Shown here: piece by piece, positions 49,616-62,102 of the stretch
How positions within the stretch are numbered: position 1 is the stretch's first letter
How the letters are laid out: each line of letters opens with the position of its first letter
Source: a virus
Strand: one strand, 5' to 3'
Length of the DNA: 64,000 bases
Virus record (IMG/VR): IMGVR_UViG_3300021091_000015
Translations under genes and position numbers: made by a program
The notes under the pieces: model-generated
Seen by the model: only the letters and a program-made list of their open reading frames with translations
What the model was told of the DNA's origin: nothing
The model's database searches: none

Positions 49616-50218
49616 ATGGAATTAAGGAAATACATTAAAGAAACTCTACTCGAAGAAAGAGAAAGAAAGTTGTACGAATCTTATGATGAATTAAATGACA
49701 TCAGAGATAAGGAGTATTTTCTTGAAAGATACTTTGTTATAACCTCTGGTCTTTTAAATGAAGGATATTCCTTTGAAGAAGTTGAGTCTGTACTTAATGA
49801 AGTTGAAAATCCATTATCGGGTCTTGACTTAACTGGTGATGATTTATTAAGTGCGGGTGGTTCGCAATTGAAAGAGTACGCAATCAATCTATTATTAACA
49901 TTTATTTTTGGTGGTAAGAATCAAGGAATGATTACAACCATCTCAGTGGTTTTTGCTGATTATGATGTTAGAGACATACTTAAACCTTTTAAAGATGAAC
50001 CGAATTGTATGTCTCATATGCCAAAAATGGTTGATGGGGTATTAGAAGCTTTATCAAGATATGTGGCAGGTTCTGCTGTTGGTGTAGATAGGAATAATTA
50101 CGGATTAAATTTAGGAGGTTTATCTTCAGGTTTTGCTGGAAATATATTTGGTGAAGTAATAAAAGATTCTAATATAGGTGAAACCATATCAGACAAAATA
50201 TGTAAATTTATTCACTAA
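49616..50218 (+). CDS. Hypothetical late protein
   Basis: IKETLLEE leader; in operon. Confidence 0.6.
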   Translation: MELRKYIKETLLEERERKLYESYDELNDIRDKEYFLERYFVITSGLLNEGYSFEEVESVLNEVENPLSGLDLTGDDLLSAGGSQLKEYAINLLLTFIFGGKNQGMITTISVVFADYDVRDILKPFKDEPNCMSHMPKMVDGVLEALSRYVAGSAVGVDRNNYGLNLGGLSSGFAGNIFGEVIKDSNIGETISDKICKFIH

Positions 50219-51180
50219 TGGAATTCACTAAAAAACAAATAATAGAAAATAAAAAAGTATTAAAAGAAGATACATTAGAAAATATTCTAATGGTAGCGGG
50301 ATTTGTACCTGTAATTGGTGAAATCGCTGACATTATATTGATTATTAGATATATCTATAAAAAAGAATATCTATACGCAGCATTGATGTTAGTCGCGCTT
50401 ATACCTACAGTGGGTGACTTTATAGTTAAACCATTTATTCGAGTATTAAAGAGCGCAGGTATTGCTGGTAAAACAGCTCTTAGGAGTAGTGATGATTTAG
50501 CTAAATACTTGATGCAAAATCCAAGTGCGAAAGAACAATTCTTAAAGATGTCAAAACACTTTGACGATGCTGGTGTAAAACAAACAATAAATTCAGTATC
50601 AAATATAAACAAGGGTTGGGGTCAAAAAATGACTGATGGTCTTAGTTCTCTAAAAACCACAGCATCTAAATTAAGACCTGTACAAATGACTCAAAGAATT
50701 GGTAAAGAGATTGCAACACAACCTTCGGCTGGTTATCTTAAAATGATGTCAGGTAGAGGACCTGTGGCAACAGGTATGAAAGCATTCTTTAGAGAAGAAA
50801 AATTAGCTCAGTATATTGCGAAAAAAGGTATGGAACCTAGCAATTGGTTGAGTAAATGGTGGAATATAACAAGAGCAGGAAGACAATCAAGAAAAGACAT
50901 GTTTAGGTCAATTGTCATATCAAGTCAAGTTGCAAAAATGTTTGGCTTACCCAATTTAAGTATGAACCAACTCGATAGAGCGATGCTTGATGATAGATTT
51001 AAAAATGCTTTAGCTAATGACCCAACAGTTAGTCAATACATTGCACAAAACACGACTCCCGATGATTTAAGTCAAATTGAAGGTGATTCAAACACAAATC
51101 AAGGAGGGGAATCTGTGAACCCCTTAGCTGGAATTTTAGGTATAGGTTTATTAAAAACTTTAGCAAAAAAATACGTCTAA
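50218..51180 (+). CDS. Protein with pre-toxin-TG-like hydrophobic hairpin
   Basis: AGFVPVIGEIAD...ALIPTVGD directly after LKED. Confidence 0.55.
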   Translation: MEFTKKQIIENKKVLKEDTLENILMVAGFVPVIGEIADIILIIRYIYKKEYLYAALMLVALIPTVGDFIVKPFIRVLKSAGIAGKTALRSSDDLAKYLMQNPSAKEQFLKMSKHFDDAGVKQTINSVSNINKGWGQKMTDGLSSLKTTASKLRPVQMTQRIGKEIATQPSAGYLKMMSGRGPVATGMKAFFREEKLAQYIAKKGMEPSNWLSKWWNITRAGRQSRKDMFRSIVISSQVAKMFGLPNLSMNQLDRAMLDDRFKNALANDPTVSQYIAQNTTPDDLSQIEGDSNTNQGGESVNPLAGILGIGLLKTLAKKYV

Positions 51181-51204
51181 ATTAAGATTACAAGATATTT
51201 ATAA

Positions 51205-51309
51205 TTAGAATCAAATGGTTTGGTCGCCATGAGATGATAATTAGACTAAAAACGAAAGGAGGTATTCCACATCTCGGCAAAGGGGTCTGAATTGACCTCT
51301 TTGTTCGTT
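51205..51309 (+). ncRNA. Candidate late sRNA A
   Basis: ATATTTAT at 51195-51202; no ORF; hairpins ATGGT/GCCAT, GAGGT/ATCTC, CAAAGGGGTC/GACCTCTTTG. Confidence 0.55.
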
Positions 51310-51444
51310 ATATACCTCTCAAAGACAATATCGAGGACAAAGTGTCCTTAAAACAAAAAACCCACCAATTGGTGGGTTTATTATTTAATTAGTAACACCT
51401 CCATACTTTTCCCATTATCTCCATATTTATAATAAAGTAATAAA

Positions 51445-51966
51445 ATGGGAAAATGTATTTGTTCAAGCTGTGGGATTGAATTTGAAAAATCAAATTCTGA
51501 ATTAAATCGTAATAAAAAATTAAATAGACCTAATTTTTGTTCAAGAAATTGTGTTGGTATTAACAATACTAAAAATTTATTAAACGTTAAAAATCGATAC
51601 GATATACAAAGACACTCAAATAATAGAGGTGGGGAATATTCAAAATTCAAATATCATTTTAGAAATATTAAAAAAAGAAATCAAATTATTGATTTAACTA
51701 TTGAAGATTTGTCTAATCAATGGGTTTTACAAAATGGAATTTGTCCATTCAGTGGTATAAAATTAGAGTTGTCATCATATACCAAAATAAAAAAGAATCC
51801 AATATATTCTGCGTCTTTAGATAGGATAGATAATAAATTAGGTTATGTTAAAGGAAATGTTAGATGGGTTTCAAGGGCAATTAATTGGATGAAAAATGAA
51901 ATGGATGATGCGTATATTCATGAATTAATTAGTATTTTAATTAAAAATAAAAGGGAACCCTTTTGA
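51445..51966 (+). CDS. Free-standing HNH homing endonuclease-like protein
   Basis: N-terminal CxxC...FCS..C; SLDRIDNKLGYVKGNVRWVS..IN.MK. Confidence 0.8.
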   Translation: MGKCICSSCGIEFEKSNSELNRNKKLNRPNFCSRNCVGINNTKNLLNVKNRYDIQRHSNNRGGEYSKFKYHFRNIKKRNQIIDLTIEDLSNQWVLQNGICPFSGIKLELSSYTKIKKNPIYSASLDRIDNKLGYVKGNVRWVSRAINWMKNEMDDAYIHELISILIKNKREPF

Positions 51967-51980: not shown

Positions 51981-52556
51981 TGGAGGTGGCGGGTTTCGAC
52001 AATTATTGGACTATATCATCATCTCAACGAGATGTCGGACGCTAATGTGGTATTACGATAGAAGCGTCTATCACCCACTAGTCTCTGCACCTTCCTGTTC
52101 CTATCAGGCTTGGCTCAGGATTATCTAAAAGACTTCCCCTGAGTTCATCCGATTTTCGACATATCTCACGATATGAAGGGGCTCGATTAAAAACCCGCGT
52201 CTTGCTCGCAATACAATAAATGGACTACACGTTTAGGACAGTATTTTCTAATACTCCGAAATTCACAATTCCCTTATTTTAAAGTGGTTCGGTTTACTGA
52301 GAACTAATCTTCCACTTTGTTTCTTTTAGGATAGAAACCACACCCTACAAGGACTTCTGTTCCAAGGTTATCTGTCCGTCGACCCGTTAGTTACAACCAA
52401 TTAGGCTGCAACTTTAGAAGTCGCAAGAAGACCTGCTACTTCCATTTGGTTATAAACGTTGCCGTTTAAAATTTACCACCGTGGATTAAAGTCGTAGATG
52501 ACATCCGACTACGTGCCCATTTACCATATCAACGCCAATCAATTCCATACACCCCC
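51981..52556 (-). ncRNA. ssrA: tmRNA (intron-containing); tag (A)GNVYNQMEVAGLLATSKVAA at 52463-52401
   Basis: 5' GGGGGTG pairs with 3' CACCTCC-A, giving G3.U70; T-arm GCGGG-TTCGAAA-CCCGC after splicing; tag ORF ends AA-stop; TATCTTTG promoter at 52575-52582. Confidence 0.92.
52000..52192 (-). mobile_element. Group I intron (IC3-like, no ORF) in the tmRNA T-loop
   Basis: Core motifs AATCCTGAGCCAAG, GGTGCAGAGACT, GATATAGTCC; P1 GGGU/GCCC with U.G at the 5' splice site; terminal G; P10 UCGA. Confidence 0.9.
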
Positions 52557-52583
52557 ATAAGTCAAAGAACAAGACAAAGATAG

Positions 52584-53303
52584 TTAATTTTCTTCGTCTA
52601 TATAATTTATTGTAAATATACCATCATTTTCGATTAAATCAAAAACTAATGGTTTATTTATTGGTCGATACCTTTCTGTACAAGTTGATGCGTTAGCAAA
52701 TACTGTATCGCCAATCATTGCAACACCATATGCACCATGTATGTGACCAAAAACATGTAAAAGTGGTTTTAAAACTTCAACACGCTCTCTTAAAAGTTCA
52801 CATCCGACCTGTAAATTATTGGGTGTAAAATCTCTAATTCCATGTGGTGGACCATGTGTTATTAAGATATCGGTATTATTTGGGATTGAGTCCCATTTTT
52901 CTTTTAACACCTCACCGTTTCTTGGTAAATTAAATGCCCAATCAAAAAATTCAGGTTGCCATGGAGAACCATAAATTTTTATTGGTCTTGAGAATTCTGA
53001 ACTAATAATTTCCAACTCACCATCTTCCAAATAAGTAACATTATTTTCTGTGAGAATTGATGGGTCTATGTAAAGATTTAACCATGTTGGTTTTCTTTGA
53101 AACGCAAAATCGTGGTTACCTGCAATGAAAATTTTATGGGTAAATCCTTGTATATTTTGAAACCAATTAATAAAATCACGAACATCATTTTGTCGTCCGA
53201 CATTTGTGCAATCTCCTGAGTGTATCAAAATATCTCCCTGTGGTATGTTATACAACATACCATTGTGTAAAGAGTGGGTGTCAGAAATACATACTATTCT
53301 CAT
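52584..53303 (-). CDS. Calcineurin-like metallophosphoesterase (MPPED/239FB-like)
   Basis: SDTH, HSGD, AGNHD, THGPP, GHIH. Confidence 0.85.
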   Translation of the reverse strand: MRIVCISDTHSLHNGMLYNIPQGDILIHSGDCTNVGRQNDVRDFINWFQNIQGFTHKIFIAGNHDFAFQRKPTWLNLYIDPSILTENNVTYLEDGELEIISSEFSRPIKIYGSPWQPEFFDWAFNLPRNGEVLKEKWDSIPNNTDILITHGPPHGIRDFTPNNLQVGCELLRERVEVLKPLLHVFGHIHGAYGVAMIGDTVFANASTCTERYRPINKPLVFDLIENDGIFTINYIDEEN

Positions 53304-53907: not shown

Positions 53908-54326
53908 ATGGAAACTGTGTCAATAATTGTTTTGATTATCGGTCAAAGTAGAAATAACTGAACACATATCCATGTGTGTTTTAAAAGTGGAAAGACTACA
54001 ACTAATTTTTGATTTTTTGCTTAAAATTTAGAAGTAAGTTGATAGATAGCCACTCAATATGATTGACGGAAAAAGTACGGGTAATGTAACATATAATTGT
54101 TATAGAAGGGGGGACATTAGTCCCCTAGCAGAAGTAACCCAATACATAGCCGTCTAAGAAGTTATGTGGAAATTGTGTGTCTGGTTTTCGTATCTGATAG
54201 TTGTTTGTTAGAAGTAAGACGTTTGCATTGATACTTTTGTCACCGCTAAGGACCAAAACAGAACCACTCCGTGGTTTGATGTGATGGTCAGTTGACTATC
54301 CTCTCAATGGCTCACATAGCCACATA
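53908..54326 (-). ncRNA. Tandem array of four structured RNA repeats (53908-53973, 53986-54054, 54065-54154, 54163-54326)
   Basis: Each unit: stem-GG-CTAT-3bp-bulge-5bp-TACTTCT-variable loop-stems-TTT-CC, with compensatory stem changes; boxA-like GTTCTTTGA at 54334-54342. Confidence 0.75.
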
Positions 54327-54354
54327 TAATATTTCAAAGAACTAATGGGTGAGT

Positions 54355-56427
54355 TTAGACACCCATCAATTTACCTGTCTCTTCATAAGAGTAACAGAAG
54401 TCCTCGTACTTGAAATGTGTATCCACATTCTCGTCAAGGGTAACTTGTTTTCCTCGACCTTCTACGTGTAGAAGAATAAGGTCATAAACACTTACTTTTG
54501 GTAATTCAGCGTATTGTTGAATTACTTTAAAGGTGTTATTGAAGTCGCTCCTCGCGGTTACAAAACCACTTGAATCAATGTCCAACATGATGTACTCTTT
54601 GGTTTCTAAGTCAATAATTGCAATCAAAGTGTTTGACGACTCAGATTCTAATGATTGACAATTTGAAATTGTCTCAGGTAACCATGTCGTGTTTGATTCA
54701 GGATGTTCTCTCTCCATGATACCAAAGGATGTTTCAAGTGAACTTAAACTACCGCCATTGAAGTTTCTTACGTCAATAACCGCGTACTTGAATCCACGAT
54801 TTAATCCATCTTGAATATCGATGTCGATGTACTCCGCACAAGGACCCTGTCTATGTCTCACGTCCCCCGAGTGAACAGAGTTACCAACTCTCAAGTTACT
54901 GAAAGATAGTACTTCTGACACTTTTTCACCAACAAACGTAACACTTAAATCCAAGTCTTCAGAACCACGTTTATCCATCCAATGAATAAATGGTCTGATA
55001 ACTTTTGCATCGGGGTTATCGAGCGGAACTCGTTGACCTCTGATGGTAGGTTTAGTTGAGAAGTTCATACTTCTCATGTTGGTTGGTAAAGGAATCTTTT
55101 TTAATTCCTCATCAATCCAACAGTTACCTAAAGAATCCATTACCGAAAACTTATCTCTAAGAGTTTCGAATAATTTAGAGTGGATGGTTTCCACAATCTC
55201 TTTAGGGATTGCTTGTAGTGATGGTAATTCGGTACGTTTTCTCGCTCCTTTAATCATAACTGACCTATTTGTTTTAGGTTCAGTACGACCTTCAAAGTGA
55301 GTGTAAACCTCAAACAATACTTTGTTTGATGTACCTTTTACCGCTTCTCCGAATAATTTCATAATTGTTTCAATATCTTGTGGATATGTACGAACCAACC
55401 AATCTAATCGACGAGAGAATTCACCGGGTCTTTGAGACAATACTCTCAAACCATTCTCCAAACTTTTTTTGAATCCCTCATCTACAAGGGAGAACCAAGA
55501 TTTTACTTTCTCGTTTCTAATCTTGTTGAACGCATCAAAAGATTTAGGGAATTGGTTTTTATACTCACCCGGGTGTAAGATTTCACCTAAACGAACCCAT
55601 CGTTGGTCTCTTAAAACCATTTCTCTTGGGTCACAGTTTGTGTTCTCAAGTAAATTCAAGATGTACTTCCTCTCTTTACGAGTGAATTTCTTGAATTTAA
55701 ACTTTTCTCTTTCGGGATTTACTCCTTTATCGGTAGACCATCTGTTTAGTCTAATTTCCTTTTCAGGAACTTTAGGTAAACTAATGTCTCCACCTGAAAG
55801 ATGAACGGCTATTCTTAACACGTCGGTTGAAGTTTTTACTGGAAGTCCCTCGATTCCCATTCCCGCAAGTGTACACAAATTCTCTTTGAAAGGAATTGTG
55901 TCAGGGAAAATCAATGTTTCACCACTTGATACAAACCACTTAACAATCTCAAGGTCTTGGGGGGTTAATGATGTGTTGATTGACACTAAGTCAGTGAAAA
56001 TTTTTGAGAATCTATCAGAGGTACCATACTTAATCAAGTTGTATTTAATTTTTTCAAACTTGATTTCTTTTTCGTAAGTGTGGGTTGATGGTTCCCATTG
56101 ACCATTACTCCAATAATGCAAGATTGCGTTCATGTATAATTCGAAGTCGGACATAACCATCACTTCTTGTGGGAAATTCTTATATAGGGGTTGGTAATTA
56201 CGATTACCACCCATTACATTTTTCAAATGATTCAATACTTCATGATTGAAGTTTTGAATAAACGATAATTCTGATTTGGACAACGCGAAGAAAGCATCTT
56301 CGTCTAACATGTAACCCCATTGCATTAAGTGGGATTGAACGGTTGCTACCGCGATTCTATTATCTTGACCGTCGTTTGGTGAACAGACCAAACCTTTTTG
56401 AAACGCAACTAAATTCCTTGTTGTCAT
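54355..56427 (-). CDS. Large alpha-helical protein with C-terminal TerD-like domain
   Basis: C-terminal FIHW...DLDLS...HSGD...AEYID TerD-type motifs; N-terminal PLY..FP, FKEN, TDVLR, HPGEY, RPGEF; TATCTTTG at 56464-56471. Confidence 0.7.
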   Translation of the reverse strand: MTTRNLVAFQKGLVCSPNDGQDNRIAVATVQSHLMQWGYMLDEDAFFALSKSELSFIQNFNHEVLNHLKNVMGGNRNYQPLYKNFPQEVMVMSDFELYMNAILHYWSNGQWEPSTHTYEKEIKFEKIKYNLIKYGTSDRFSKIFTDLVSINTSLTPQDLEIVKWFVSSGETLIFPDTIPFKENLCTLAGMGIEGLPVKTSTDVLRIAVHLSGGDISLPKVPEKEIRLNRWSTDKGVNPEREKFKFKKFTRKERKYILNLLENTNCDPREMVLRDQRWVRLGEILHPGEYKNQFPKSFDAFNKIRNEKVKSWFSLVDEGFKKSLENGLRVLSQRPGEFSRRLDWLVRTYPQDIETIMKLFGEAVKGTSNKVLFEVYTHFEGRTEPKTNRSVMIKGARKRTELPSLQAIPKEIVETIHSKLFETLRDKFSVMDSLGNCWIDEELKKIPLPTNMRSMNFSTKPTIRGQRVPLDNPDAKVIRPFIHWMDKRGSEDLDLSVTFVGEKVSEVLSFSNLRVGNSVHSGDVRHRQGPCAEYIDIDIQDGLNRGFKYAVIDVRNFNGGSLSSLETSFGIMEREHPESNTTWLPETISNCQSLESESSNTLIAIIDLETKEYIMLDIDSSGFVTARSDFNNTFKVIQQYAELPKVSVYDLILLHVEGRGKQVTLDENVDTHFKYEDFCYSYEETGKLMGV

Positions 56428-61911: not shown

Positions 61912-61965
61912 GGTAAAATAGATTTATCGCAAATATAAATAATAATTTTTAGAATACCAAAAAAA

Positions 61966-62062
61966 TAAAAACCCCCAACAGAGAGTCGGGGGTTTGTGGT
62001 CATTTTGTGGTTTCAACACCACAGACTATAAAACGAAAGGAAATCGGCAAAGATATCCTGTG
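61966..62062 (-). ncRNA. Candidate sRNA B
   Basis: Minus-strand ATATTTAT at 62068-62075; TGTGGT/ACCACA hairpin; terminator CCCCCGAC/GTTGGGGG plus T tract; no ORF. Confidence 0.5.
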
Positions 62063-62102
62063 TGAATATAAATATATATGTTTTTTTAAAAAGTATGAAT
62101 AT

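Follow-up and report, generated by a model that had tools for sequence, protein, structure and literature searches.

The 64,000-nucleotide stretch of viral DNA analysed here (IMG/VR record IMGVR_UViG_3300021091_000015), referred to in the following as the window, carries the 16-mer GAAAGGAGGTATTCCA on its + strand at 51254–51269, in a 264-nt gap flanked by + strand ORFs at 50218–51180 and 51445–51966. Within this gap, a promoter-like motif, ATATTTAT (51195–51202), heads a series of + strand elements that we call sRNA A: a 5′ hairpin (51210–51235) with the loop GGUUUGGUC(G/A)CC, an unpaired centre, or seed (51236–51274), that includes the 16-mer, the hexamer AUCUCG (51271–51276), the last two letters of which form the base of a second hairpin, and this 3′ hairpin itself, with 10 pairs (51275–51307). 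A strong hairpin at 51358–51379, a terminator on both strands, closes the + strand unit. The original prediction had placed the 16-mer at this position in an ORF-less unit running from a promoter at 51195 to a hairpin terminator, and that layout was borne out. The RNA would be about 95 nt long if it ended at the 3′ hairpin, or about 175 nt if it ended at the strong terminator. The + strand of 51181–51395 folded at −62.5 kcal/mol (z −5.86), whereas the minus strand folded less well (z −4.0). A search of the region against Rfam returned no family at gathering score; at E values up to 10, the matches within 51181–51400 scored far under their gathering scores and covered the 3′ part, mostly the terminator.

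The motif ATATTTAT occurred 25 times in the window, with 19 of the copies placed 4–32 nt 5′ of an ATG ORF, so that many phage mRNAs would have very short leaders. Example sites are 577, 934, 4914, 6054, 46167, 51423 and 57850 (minus strand), and in a related phage (L235) the motif stands 8 nt 5′ of the ATG of the bS21 gene. Two of the six remaining copies in the window head sRNA A and a second RNA, sRNA B, described below. These placements mark sRNA A as an RNA gene in its own right, headed by a promoter of the phage type. A "late" timing was supposed solely from the shared promoter-like motif. A PHROG search assigned no function to the genes upstream of sRNA A.

On the other side of sRNA A lies a tmRNA gene (51981–52556, minus strand), the T-loop of which is split by a group I intron (51990–52202). 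Rfam scored the intron at 68.8 bits and the tmRNA at 35.4 bits, the latter under gathering because of the intron, and ARAGORN did not find the split gene, in which the tag frame closes with VAA. As the minus strand of the 16-mer contains UACCUCC, a sequence able to close the acceptor stem of the tmRNA, we considered whether it might be the tmRNA 3′ exon; this was rejected, as the real exon follows directly after the intron, and AAACCCGC CACCUCC A with its terminator occupies 51996–51950. Contigs from RNA libraries covered 52055–52876 at a depth of 100–200, and several ended at 52192, the exon–intron border, with loose ends running into the T-arm and acceptor strand, as expected of spliced RNA or of intron-less relatives. 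An HNH endonuclease gene (51445–51966, +) separates sRNA A from the tmRNA and is encoded on the other strand from the intron. The HNH gene is absent from L027, L028, L033 and L035, where an intron-less tmRNA converges on sRNA A and the two share a terminator. Since many relatives lack the HNH gene, the sRNA–tmRNA neighbourhood is the older arrangement.

Relatives of sRNA A were collected with two sequence patterns. The first was anchored on the hairpin loop and ACGAAAGG; the second used the loop and the 3′ side of the second hairpin only, leaving the centre free. Together they yielded a family of 69 loci, with 44 distinct sequences, on large freshwater phage contigs of up to 333 kb. The loop GGUUUGGUC(G/A)CC was invariant in the 44 sequences, an invariance qualified by the fact that both patterns demanded most of it. 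The order of elements was the same in all copies: ATATTTAT at a constant distance, the loop hairpin, GAUAA, a variable linker, AAACGAAA(A)GGAGGU(A/G)UUC, a spacer of 0–6 nt, the invariant AUCUCG and the second hairpin. The exact 16-mer had about 25 matches in viral contigs, of which just two (L020 and L024) shared the flanking sequence; the others were discarded as relatives, being ordinary SDs or chance matches. It is thus the conservation across the family, not the single copy, that excludes chance. A phage collection contained no cultured relatives and gave matches to the intron and the HNH gene only.

In the consensus fold of the 44 sequences, the whole centre was unpaired. Overall, 98.3% of the cells in the alignment could pair, compared to 40–74% with slid partners, and the 3′ hairpin had 99.8% of its cells paired. 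Six stem pairs had changed on both sides, including a pair in the 5′ hairpin that is U–A in 29 sequences and C–G in 11. Many one-sided changes (G–C to G–U and A–U to G–U) are consistent with the + strand alone. Four relatives (L029, L030, L038 and L039) had no terminator beyond the 3′ hairpin, and where a new gene follows immediately, this hairpin is, on the sequence, the sole possible transcript end. The window's own sub-clade (L024, L030, L039 and L062), though not the family at large, retains AUACCUCU, a sequence resembling the 16S tail (51312–51319 in the window) that could pair with GGAGGUAU in the long transcript and may serve to mask the seed internally in a long isoform. With its own promoter-like motif and terminator, a conserved unpaired seed and structured ends, sRNA A resembles a trans-acting base-pairing sRNA. 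The comparisons confirm it as a conserved phage small-RNA gene on the + strand, separate, structured and predicted to lack an ordinary protein-coding frame.

None of the 43 distinct family members analyzed had ATG, GTG or TTG 3–14 nt past the GGAGG, in agreement with the earlier statement that no start codon stood at SD spacing. That account did not mention an invariant ATC, found 6–9 nt past GGAGG in 42 of the 43 members (8 nt in the window) and 12 nt past it in the other. In about 30 of the 43, this AUC opens a frame of six codons, I-S-(A/T)-(K/R)-(G/E)-(S/L), closed by a stop within the hairpin loop. The remaining 13 or so include the window, where the frame has 27 codons; in these it continues into unrelated sequence for a variable length. 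The residue changes within it track RNA pairs, namely the covariation in the stem and a compensatory site with sRNA B.

The best conserved single-stranded part of sRNA A is the complement to the 3′ tail of 16S rRNA. When the 44 distinct sequences were anchored on GGAGG and the letters counted, the core (GGAGG in 42, GGGGG in 2) lay opposite C1539–C1535. On its 5′ side, positions −3 to −1 were A in 43–44 sequences, opposite U1542–U1540, and position −4 was A in 23 and G in 21, opposite C or U at 1543. On the 3′ side, position +1 was U in 41 (opposite A1534), +2 was A in 27, G in 14 and U in 3 (opposite C or U at 1533), +3 was U in 41 (opposite A1532), +4 was U in 34 and C in 10 (opposite A1531), and +5 was C in 32 and U in 10 (opposite G1530). 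From +6 onward, opposite helix 45, the letters were mixed. By these counts the conserved footprint corresponds to 16S 1530–1543, the free tail, and ends at about the start of helix 45. Most changes keep the pairing, with A or G opposite U or a pyrimidine and C or U opposite G, and some of the variation instead suits a Bacteroidota tail form that has GGAA at 1529–1532. Three variants have a one-letter insertion after GGAGG and retain GUUCC.

The original prediction had compared the 16-mer with a 16S end, GGAACACCUCCUUUC, and counted 15 matches in 16. This end turned out to be one common Bacteroidota form; a second common form, GGAAUACCUCCUUUC, complements the 16-mer exactly, turning 15/16 into 16/16. 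The supposed mismatch is a match for GGAAUACC tails, found in Sphingobacteriales, Chitinophagales and Saprospiraceae. Against the Sphingobacteriales-type tail, the window's 16-mer formed 16 Watson–Crick pairs with the tail form UGGAAUACCUCCUUUC (−28.2 kcal/mol) and extended two letters into helix 45, whereas the Flavobacterium-type tail left an A–C mismatch that splits the helix into 10 + 5 pairs. The figure of 16/16 would hold only for a host with a GGAAUACC..UUUC tail.

Bacterial genomes scanned for the 16S end GGAAUACCUCCUUU gave at least 120 loci, and nearly all of the matches listed were Bacteroidota. Among these matches, 59 had GGAAUACCUCC followed by UUUCU (Sphingobacteriales such as Pedobacter, Mucilaginibacter and Sphingobacterium, with some Bacteroidales), 41 had GGAAUACCUCC followed by UUUUU (Chitinophagales) and 16 had GGAAUACCUCC followed by UUUUA (Saprospiraceae and Sediminibacterium). 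Among 401 sampled genomes from this phylum, tails of the forms GGAACACC, GGAAUACC and GGAUCACC were each common. We compared the family with three tail forms common in Bacteroidota and having GGAA at 1529–1532, namely GGAAUACC..UUUC, GGAAUACC..UUUU and GGAACACC..UUUC, a comparison that matches types of RNA and tail, not phage–host pairs. For most family RNAs, one or more of these three forms allowed 12–17 contiguous pairs (about −19 to −28 kcal/mol). Six variants whose sequence past GGAGG carries a substitution or is lengthened by one letter formed only 9–11. Because of the G at +2 and the extra A, no single tail form is a perfect partner for about one third of the family. Pairing with the GGAUCACC tail, the form of most bacteria, was on average weaker. 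No convincing complement to 16S rRNA was found for the invariant loop of the 5′ hairpin, the only match being a 7-mer near position 100, present in about a quarter of 120 operons. Conservation in related phages had been named at the outset as a check on the 16-mer, and the complement is indeed conserved throughout the family. The pattern of letters indicates that the exposed centre is selected for complementarity to the free tail of Bacteroidota 16S rRNA, and it is very probable that this complementarity is functional.

Part of the conservation of the centre has another source, which the earlier single-RNA account had missed. A second small-RNA gene, sRNA B, lies on the minus strand at 61961–62075 (RNA about 62060–61961), with ATATTTAT at 62075–62068 and its own terminator, and is also conserved in four related records. 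One region of sRNA B runs antisense to the sequences on either side of the tail complement of sRNA A. When the duplex between the two RNAs was computed for the window and three related records, sRNA B paired in all four genomes with AAAACGAAAGG and AUCUCG(G/A)CAAAG of sRNA A, at a predicted −39 to −44 kcal/mol, and at CG(G/A)C a change between G and A was compensated by one between C and U. Between the two paired flanks, 11–14 nt of sRNA A, (A)GGUAUUCCACA, were looped out as an internal loop, leaving the GGUAUUCC core unpaired in all four. The duplex accounts for the conservation of AAACGAAAGG and AUCUCGRCAAAG, but not for that of GGAGGU(A/G)UUC; since sRNA B leaves these letters uncovered, some other constraint must hold (A)GGUAUUCC. 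In a scan of the window for partners of the seed, sRNA B scored best (−37.8 kcal/mol; mean −14, sd 4.4), and the remaining candidates formed long duplexes rich in loops, the meaning of which is doubtful. With up to three mismatches allowed, nothing else in the 64 kb fitted the complement of the 16-mer. sRNA B, a second gene with extended, covarying complementarity, has what is expected of the antisense member of an sRNA/anti-sRNA pair. It resembles the seed in inverted form with the tail-complement core taken out, and it probably limits or times sRNA A; alternatively, the duplex may present the looped-out core. We also observed in sRNA B (window and L242–L245), just 5′ of the terminator, a conserved GACC and, a few letters on, AAACC, which could kiss the invariant GGUC and GGUUUG in the loop of sRNA A as a second contact.

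The genes of this phage do not use SD sequences, as had been noted in the original prediction. Among the 74 phage ORFs of at least 100 aa, a 4-mer SD core was found at −20 to −4 in 3, versus 5 in a control region, and a 5-mer core in none. The frequency of AGGAGG was that of chance. The 16S tail of Bacteroidota is buried by bS21, bS18 and bS6 (Jha 2021, PMC7797042). The gene for bS21, rpsU, has a uniquely long SD of 9–13 bp (−14 to −21 kcal/mol; McNutt 2023, PMC9976891), and ribosomes that lack bS21 preferentially translate rpsU (PMC9976891). The same authors speculated that phages aid the exchange of bS21 and that the autoregulation is a counter-defence (PMC9976891). Ablation of the anti-SD (ASD) cripples F. 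johnsoniae, chiefly through lost rpsU translation (Naeem 2026, PMC13000453), and also disturbs rRNA processing (PMC13000453).

In four of five Bacteroidota genomes with a GGAAUACC tail, one Pedobacter and three Chitinophagaceae, the rpsU leader contained GGAGGUAU or GGGGGUAU, the same letters as in the phage RNA. The leader sequences were GGAGGUAUUUC in Pedobacter (the motif also given as GAGGAGGUAUUUC), AAAGGAGGUAUC in Lacibacter, AAAAGGGGGUAU in Ferruginibacter and GAGGAGGUAUAUC in Sediminibacterium. The Ferruginibacter leader (L250) and the sRNA A of two phages (L027 and L028) both have GGGGG instead of GGAGG, a variant that gives a G–U pair with U1537 of the ASD. The window itself contains no bS21 gene. 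All eight of the RNA-bearing large phage records searched encode bS21, with the gene far from sRNA A in the relatives, and none of the four phage bS21 genes examined has an SD in front of it. The RNA-bearing records match the "bS21 phages" of freshwater lakes, which have genomes of 293–331 kb and Bacteroidetes hosts (Chen et al., PMC9723584). As the association of sRNA A with bS21 is confined to one phage lineage, it counts as one evolutionary event. The suggestion in the original prediction that the RNA might interfere with rpsU autoregulation gains weight from the co-occurrence with bS21, the SD-less phage bS21 genes and the motif shared with the rpsU leaders.

Four riverine RNA libraries reached sRNA A with one low-depth contig (51007–51267, 92% identity). 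The contigs from these libraries, which show neither transcript ends nor strand, covered the tmRNA and 54.1–56.2 kb strongly and sRNA B not at all. Libraries of this kind usually lose small RNAs, and since RNAs of about 100 nt drop out of them and of such assemblies, the contigs have no bearing on the expression of sRNA A. The heaviest cover, with a depth up to about 500, fell on 54110–56164, which overlaps a 690-aa ORF on the minus strand (54355–56427).

The explanation that we favor, at what we consider an even chance, is that sRNA A is a decoy of the extended SD of rpsU that occupies free 16S tails and blocks the resynthesis of host bS21. The 16S 3′ tail, normally buried under bS21, bS18 and bS6, would be exposed only on subunits that lack bS21. 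Owing to its extended SD, the rpsU mRNA of the host would be favored by such subunits, and bS21 would be restored. sRNA A would mimic and lengthen this rpsU signal, with 12–17 contiguous pairs versus 9–13 for rpsU. As the longer copy, it would occupy the free tails as an unproductive decoy and out-compete the rpsU mRNA, and the replenishment of host bS21 would stop. A non-start codon at the P-site suits a decoy, as the subunit would dock and be unable to initiate. The phage bS21 mRNA, which has no SD, would be unaffected, so that host bS21 would gradually be swapped for phage bS21. sRNA B, paired to both flanks of the tail complement, would probably time or limit this activity. Of the original proposal of an sRNA that binds the 30S tail, the conserved, structured gene and the conserved tail complement were upheld; transcription, 30S binding and the effect on rpsU are what we infer from them. 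Several points count against a decoy: the scant cover of the locus by RNA-library contigs, the dependence of the 16/16 match on the host's tail form, the third of the family for which no tail form is perfect, the share of the conserved block that sRNA B explains, the invariant AUC at SD spacing, and the single lineage behind the link with bS21. In addition, replete ribosomes hide the tail, so that few targets may be accessible. A more active role, in which sRNA A swaps ribosomal proteins on mature host ribosomes, seems improbable to us. Here, a helix of 14–16 bp would pull the tail from the bS21/bS18/bS6 pocket and evict host bS21, the subunit would pass to phage bS21, and sRNA B would strip sRNA A off again.

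Other explanations start from the same complementarity. The true partners of the seed might be other RNAs, such as sRNA B or tail-like phage and host mRNAs, with the likeness to an SD a by-product and the ribosome not a target. That sRNA B is the best partner in the window, conserved in four related genomes and with a compensatory change, speaks for this explanation, as does the internal AUACCUCU of the window's sub-clade, which could pair with the seed. Yet sRNA B leaves (A)GGUAUUCC unpaired in every genome compared, although these letters are among the best conserved, the window offers no further site for the 16-mer complement, and a match of 13–16 nt to the tail that reads SDs (forms with GGAA at 1529–1532) is hardly expected as a by-product; we consider this explanation unlikely. 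It is a little less probable that sRNA A is a tiny mRNA resembling rreB, in which the long SD holds the 30S subunit and a mini-ORF of about six codons is translated or occupied from AUC as a weak start, so that the active product would be a peptide or a stalled ribosome. The AUC does stand at ideal SD spacing, the six-codon frame with its stop in the loop recurs in about 30 distinct sequences, and rreB and rreR are real small mRNAs that have SDs of 16–17 nt and co-sediment with 30S (PMC5711450). If the transcript ended at the 3′ hairpin, the longer frames would be stopless and would feed the neighboring phage tmRNA, the gene of which is a convergent neighbor in many relatives. On the other hand, the usual start codons AUG, GUG and UUG are missing at SD spacing, the frame runs open into unrelated sequence in about 13 of the 43 members, including the window, its residue changes obey RNA pairs and not a peptide constraint, and the hexamer AUCUCG is already accounted for by the pairing with sRNA B and by the base of the stem.

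It is quite unlikely that sRNA A pairs with the 16S tail at the precursor stage or during 30S assembly, where it would upset 3′-end maturation or late assembly and so stop the production of new host ribosomes and not rpsU translation. The identical complementarity would serve, the window's complement enters helix 45 by two letters, and rRNA processing is inhibited by ASD ablation independently of bS21 (PMC13000453). However, conservation fades from −5 outward, where the trailer would begin, trailers vary among hosts, and a phage that needs ribosomes late would gain little from blocked assembly. Least of all do we expect sRNA A to belong to the upstream operon, as a structured 3′ untranslated region or as a stability element, instead of being a gene of its own. 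This very improbable explanation would account for the RNA-library contig that runs from the upstream ORF into sRNA A, and for the element always ending a + strand gene block. It is at odds with the ATATTTAT that every copy has at a fixed distance, with the different upstream genes among the relatives, and with an unpaired centre that is too conserved for a spacer.

Compared to known systems, sRNA A is closest to the extended SD of rpsU (PMC7797042, PMC9976891, PMC13000453). In both, almost all of the free tail (nt 1532–1544) is matched by a long uninterrupted complement, and the pairs of sRNA A (16 in the window, 12–17 in most of the family) reach or exceed the 9–13 of rpsU; the phage RNA has the same letters, GGAGGUAU or GGGGGUAU, as the leaders of GGAAUACC-type genomes, and in phage and host alike the remaining genes avoid SDs. 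sRNA A differs in having no AUG or bS21 frame downstream, in being encoded by the phage, far from its SD-less bS21 gene, in the greater length of its complement (up to 16–17), and in its two flanking hairpins and dedicated antisense partner. The alpha-proteobacterial small mRNAs rreB and rreR, with SDs of 16–17 nt (Hahn 2016, PMC5711450), are likewise small transcripts with at least 16 nt complementary to the 16S 3′ end, although sRNA A reaches 16/16 with the GGAAUACC..UUUC form only. Strong 30S binding and poor translation have been demonstrated for rreB (PMC5711450). These are cellular genes of SD-using bacteria, with an ORF of 14–18 codons and a GTG or ATG start, whereas sRNA A has an AUC only, its frame is not conserved, and its host hides the ASD.

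RNAs that act as decoys or mimics are otherwise known from 6S RNA, which targets RNA polymerase, and from CsrB/RsmZ, which target CsrA; sRNA/anti-sRNA sponge pairs are known as well. sRNA A would resemble the former in that an RNA posing as the natural ligand titrates a core machine, and the pairing of sRNA B with sRNA A recalls the sponge pairs. The difference is that sRNA A would imitate the ribosome-binding site of an mRNA and titrate the tail of an rRNA. We found no publication on an RNA like sRNA A, and the literature yielded no decoy of an mRNA ribosome-binding site or of an rRNA tail, whether phage-encoded or not.

These results bear on two open questions, why Bacteroidota keep a hidden anti-SD and what role phage-encoded bS21 plays. 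Because the dependence on SD–ASD pairing resides in the host gene and not in the phage gene, masking of the ASD would favor phage bS21. An RNA through which a phage copies the only natural ligand of the hidden tail offers a testable route to the takeover of the bS21 cycle, and an experimental system is ready in the form of F. johnsoniae reporters, bS21-depleted ribosomes and ASD-ablated strains. If the active swapping of ribosomal proteins were true, sRNA A would be the first known trans-acting RNA to remodel a finished ribosome via its rRNA tail. If the decoy explanation is true, sRNA A would be the first RNA decoy against an rRNA tail, and would add an RNA layer to the hijacking of ribosomes by large phages abundant in lakes.
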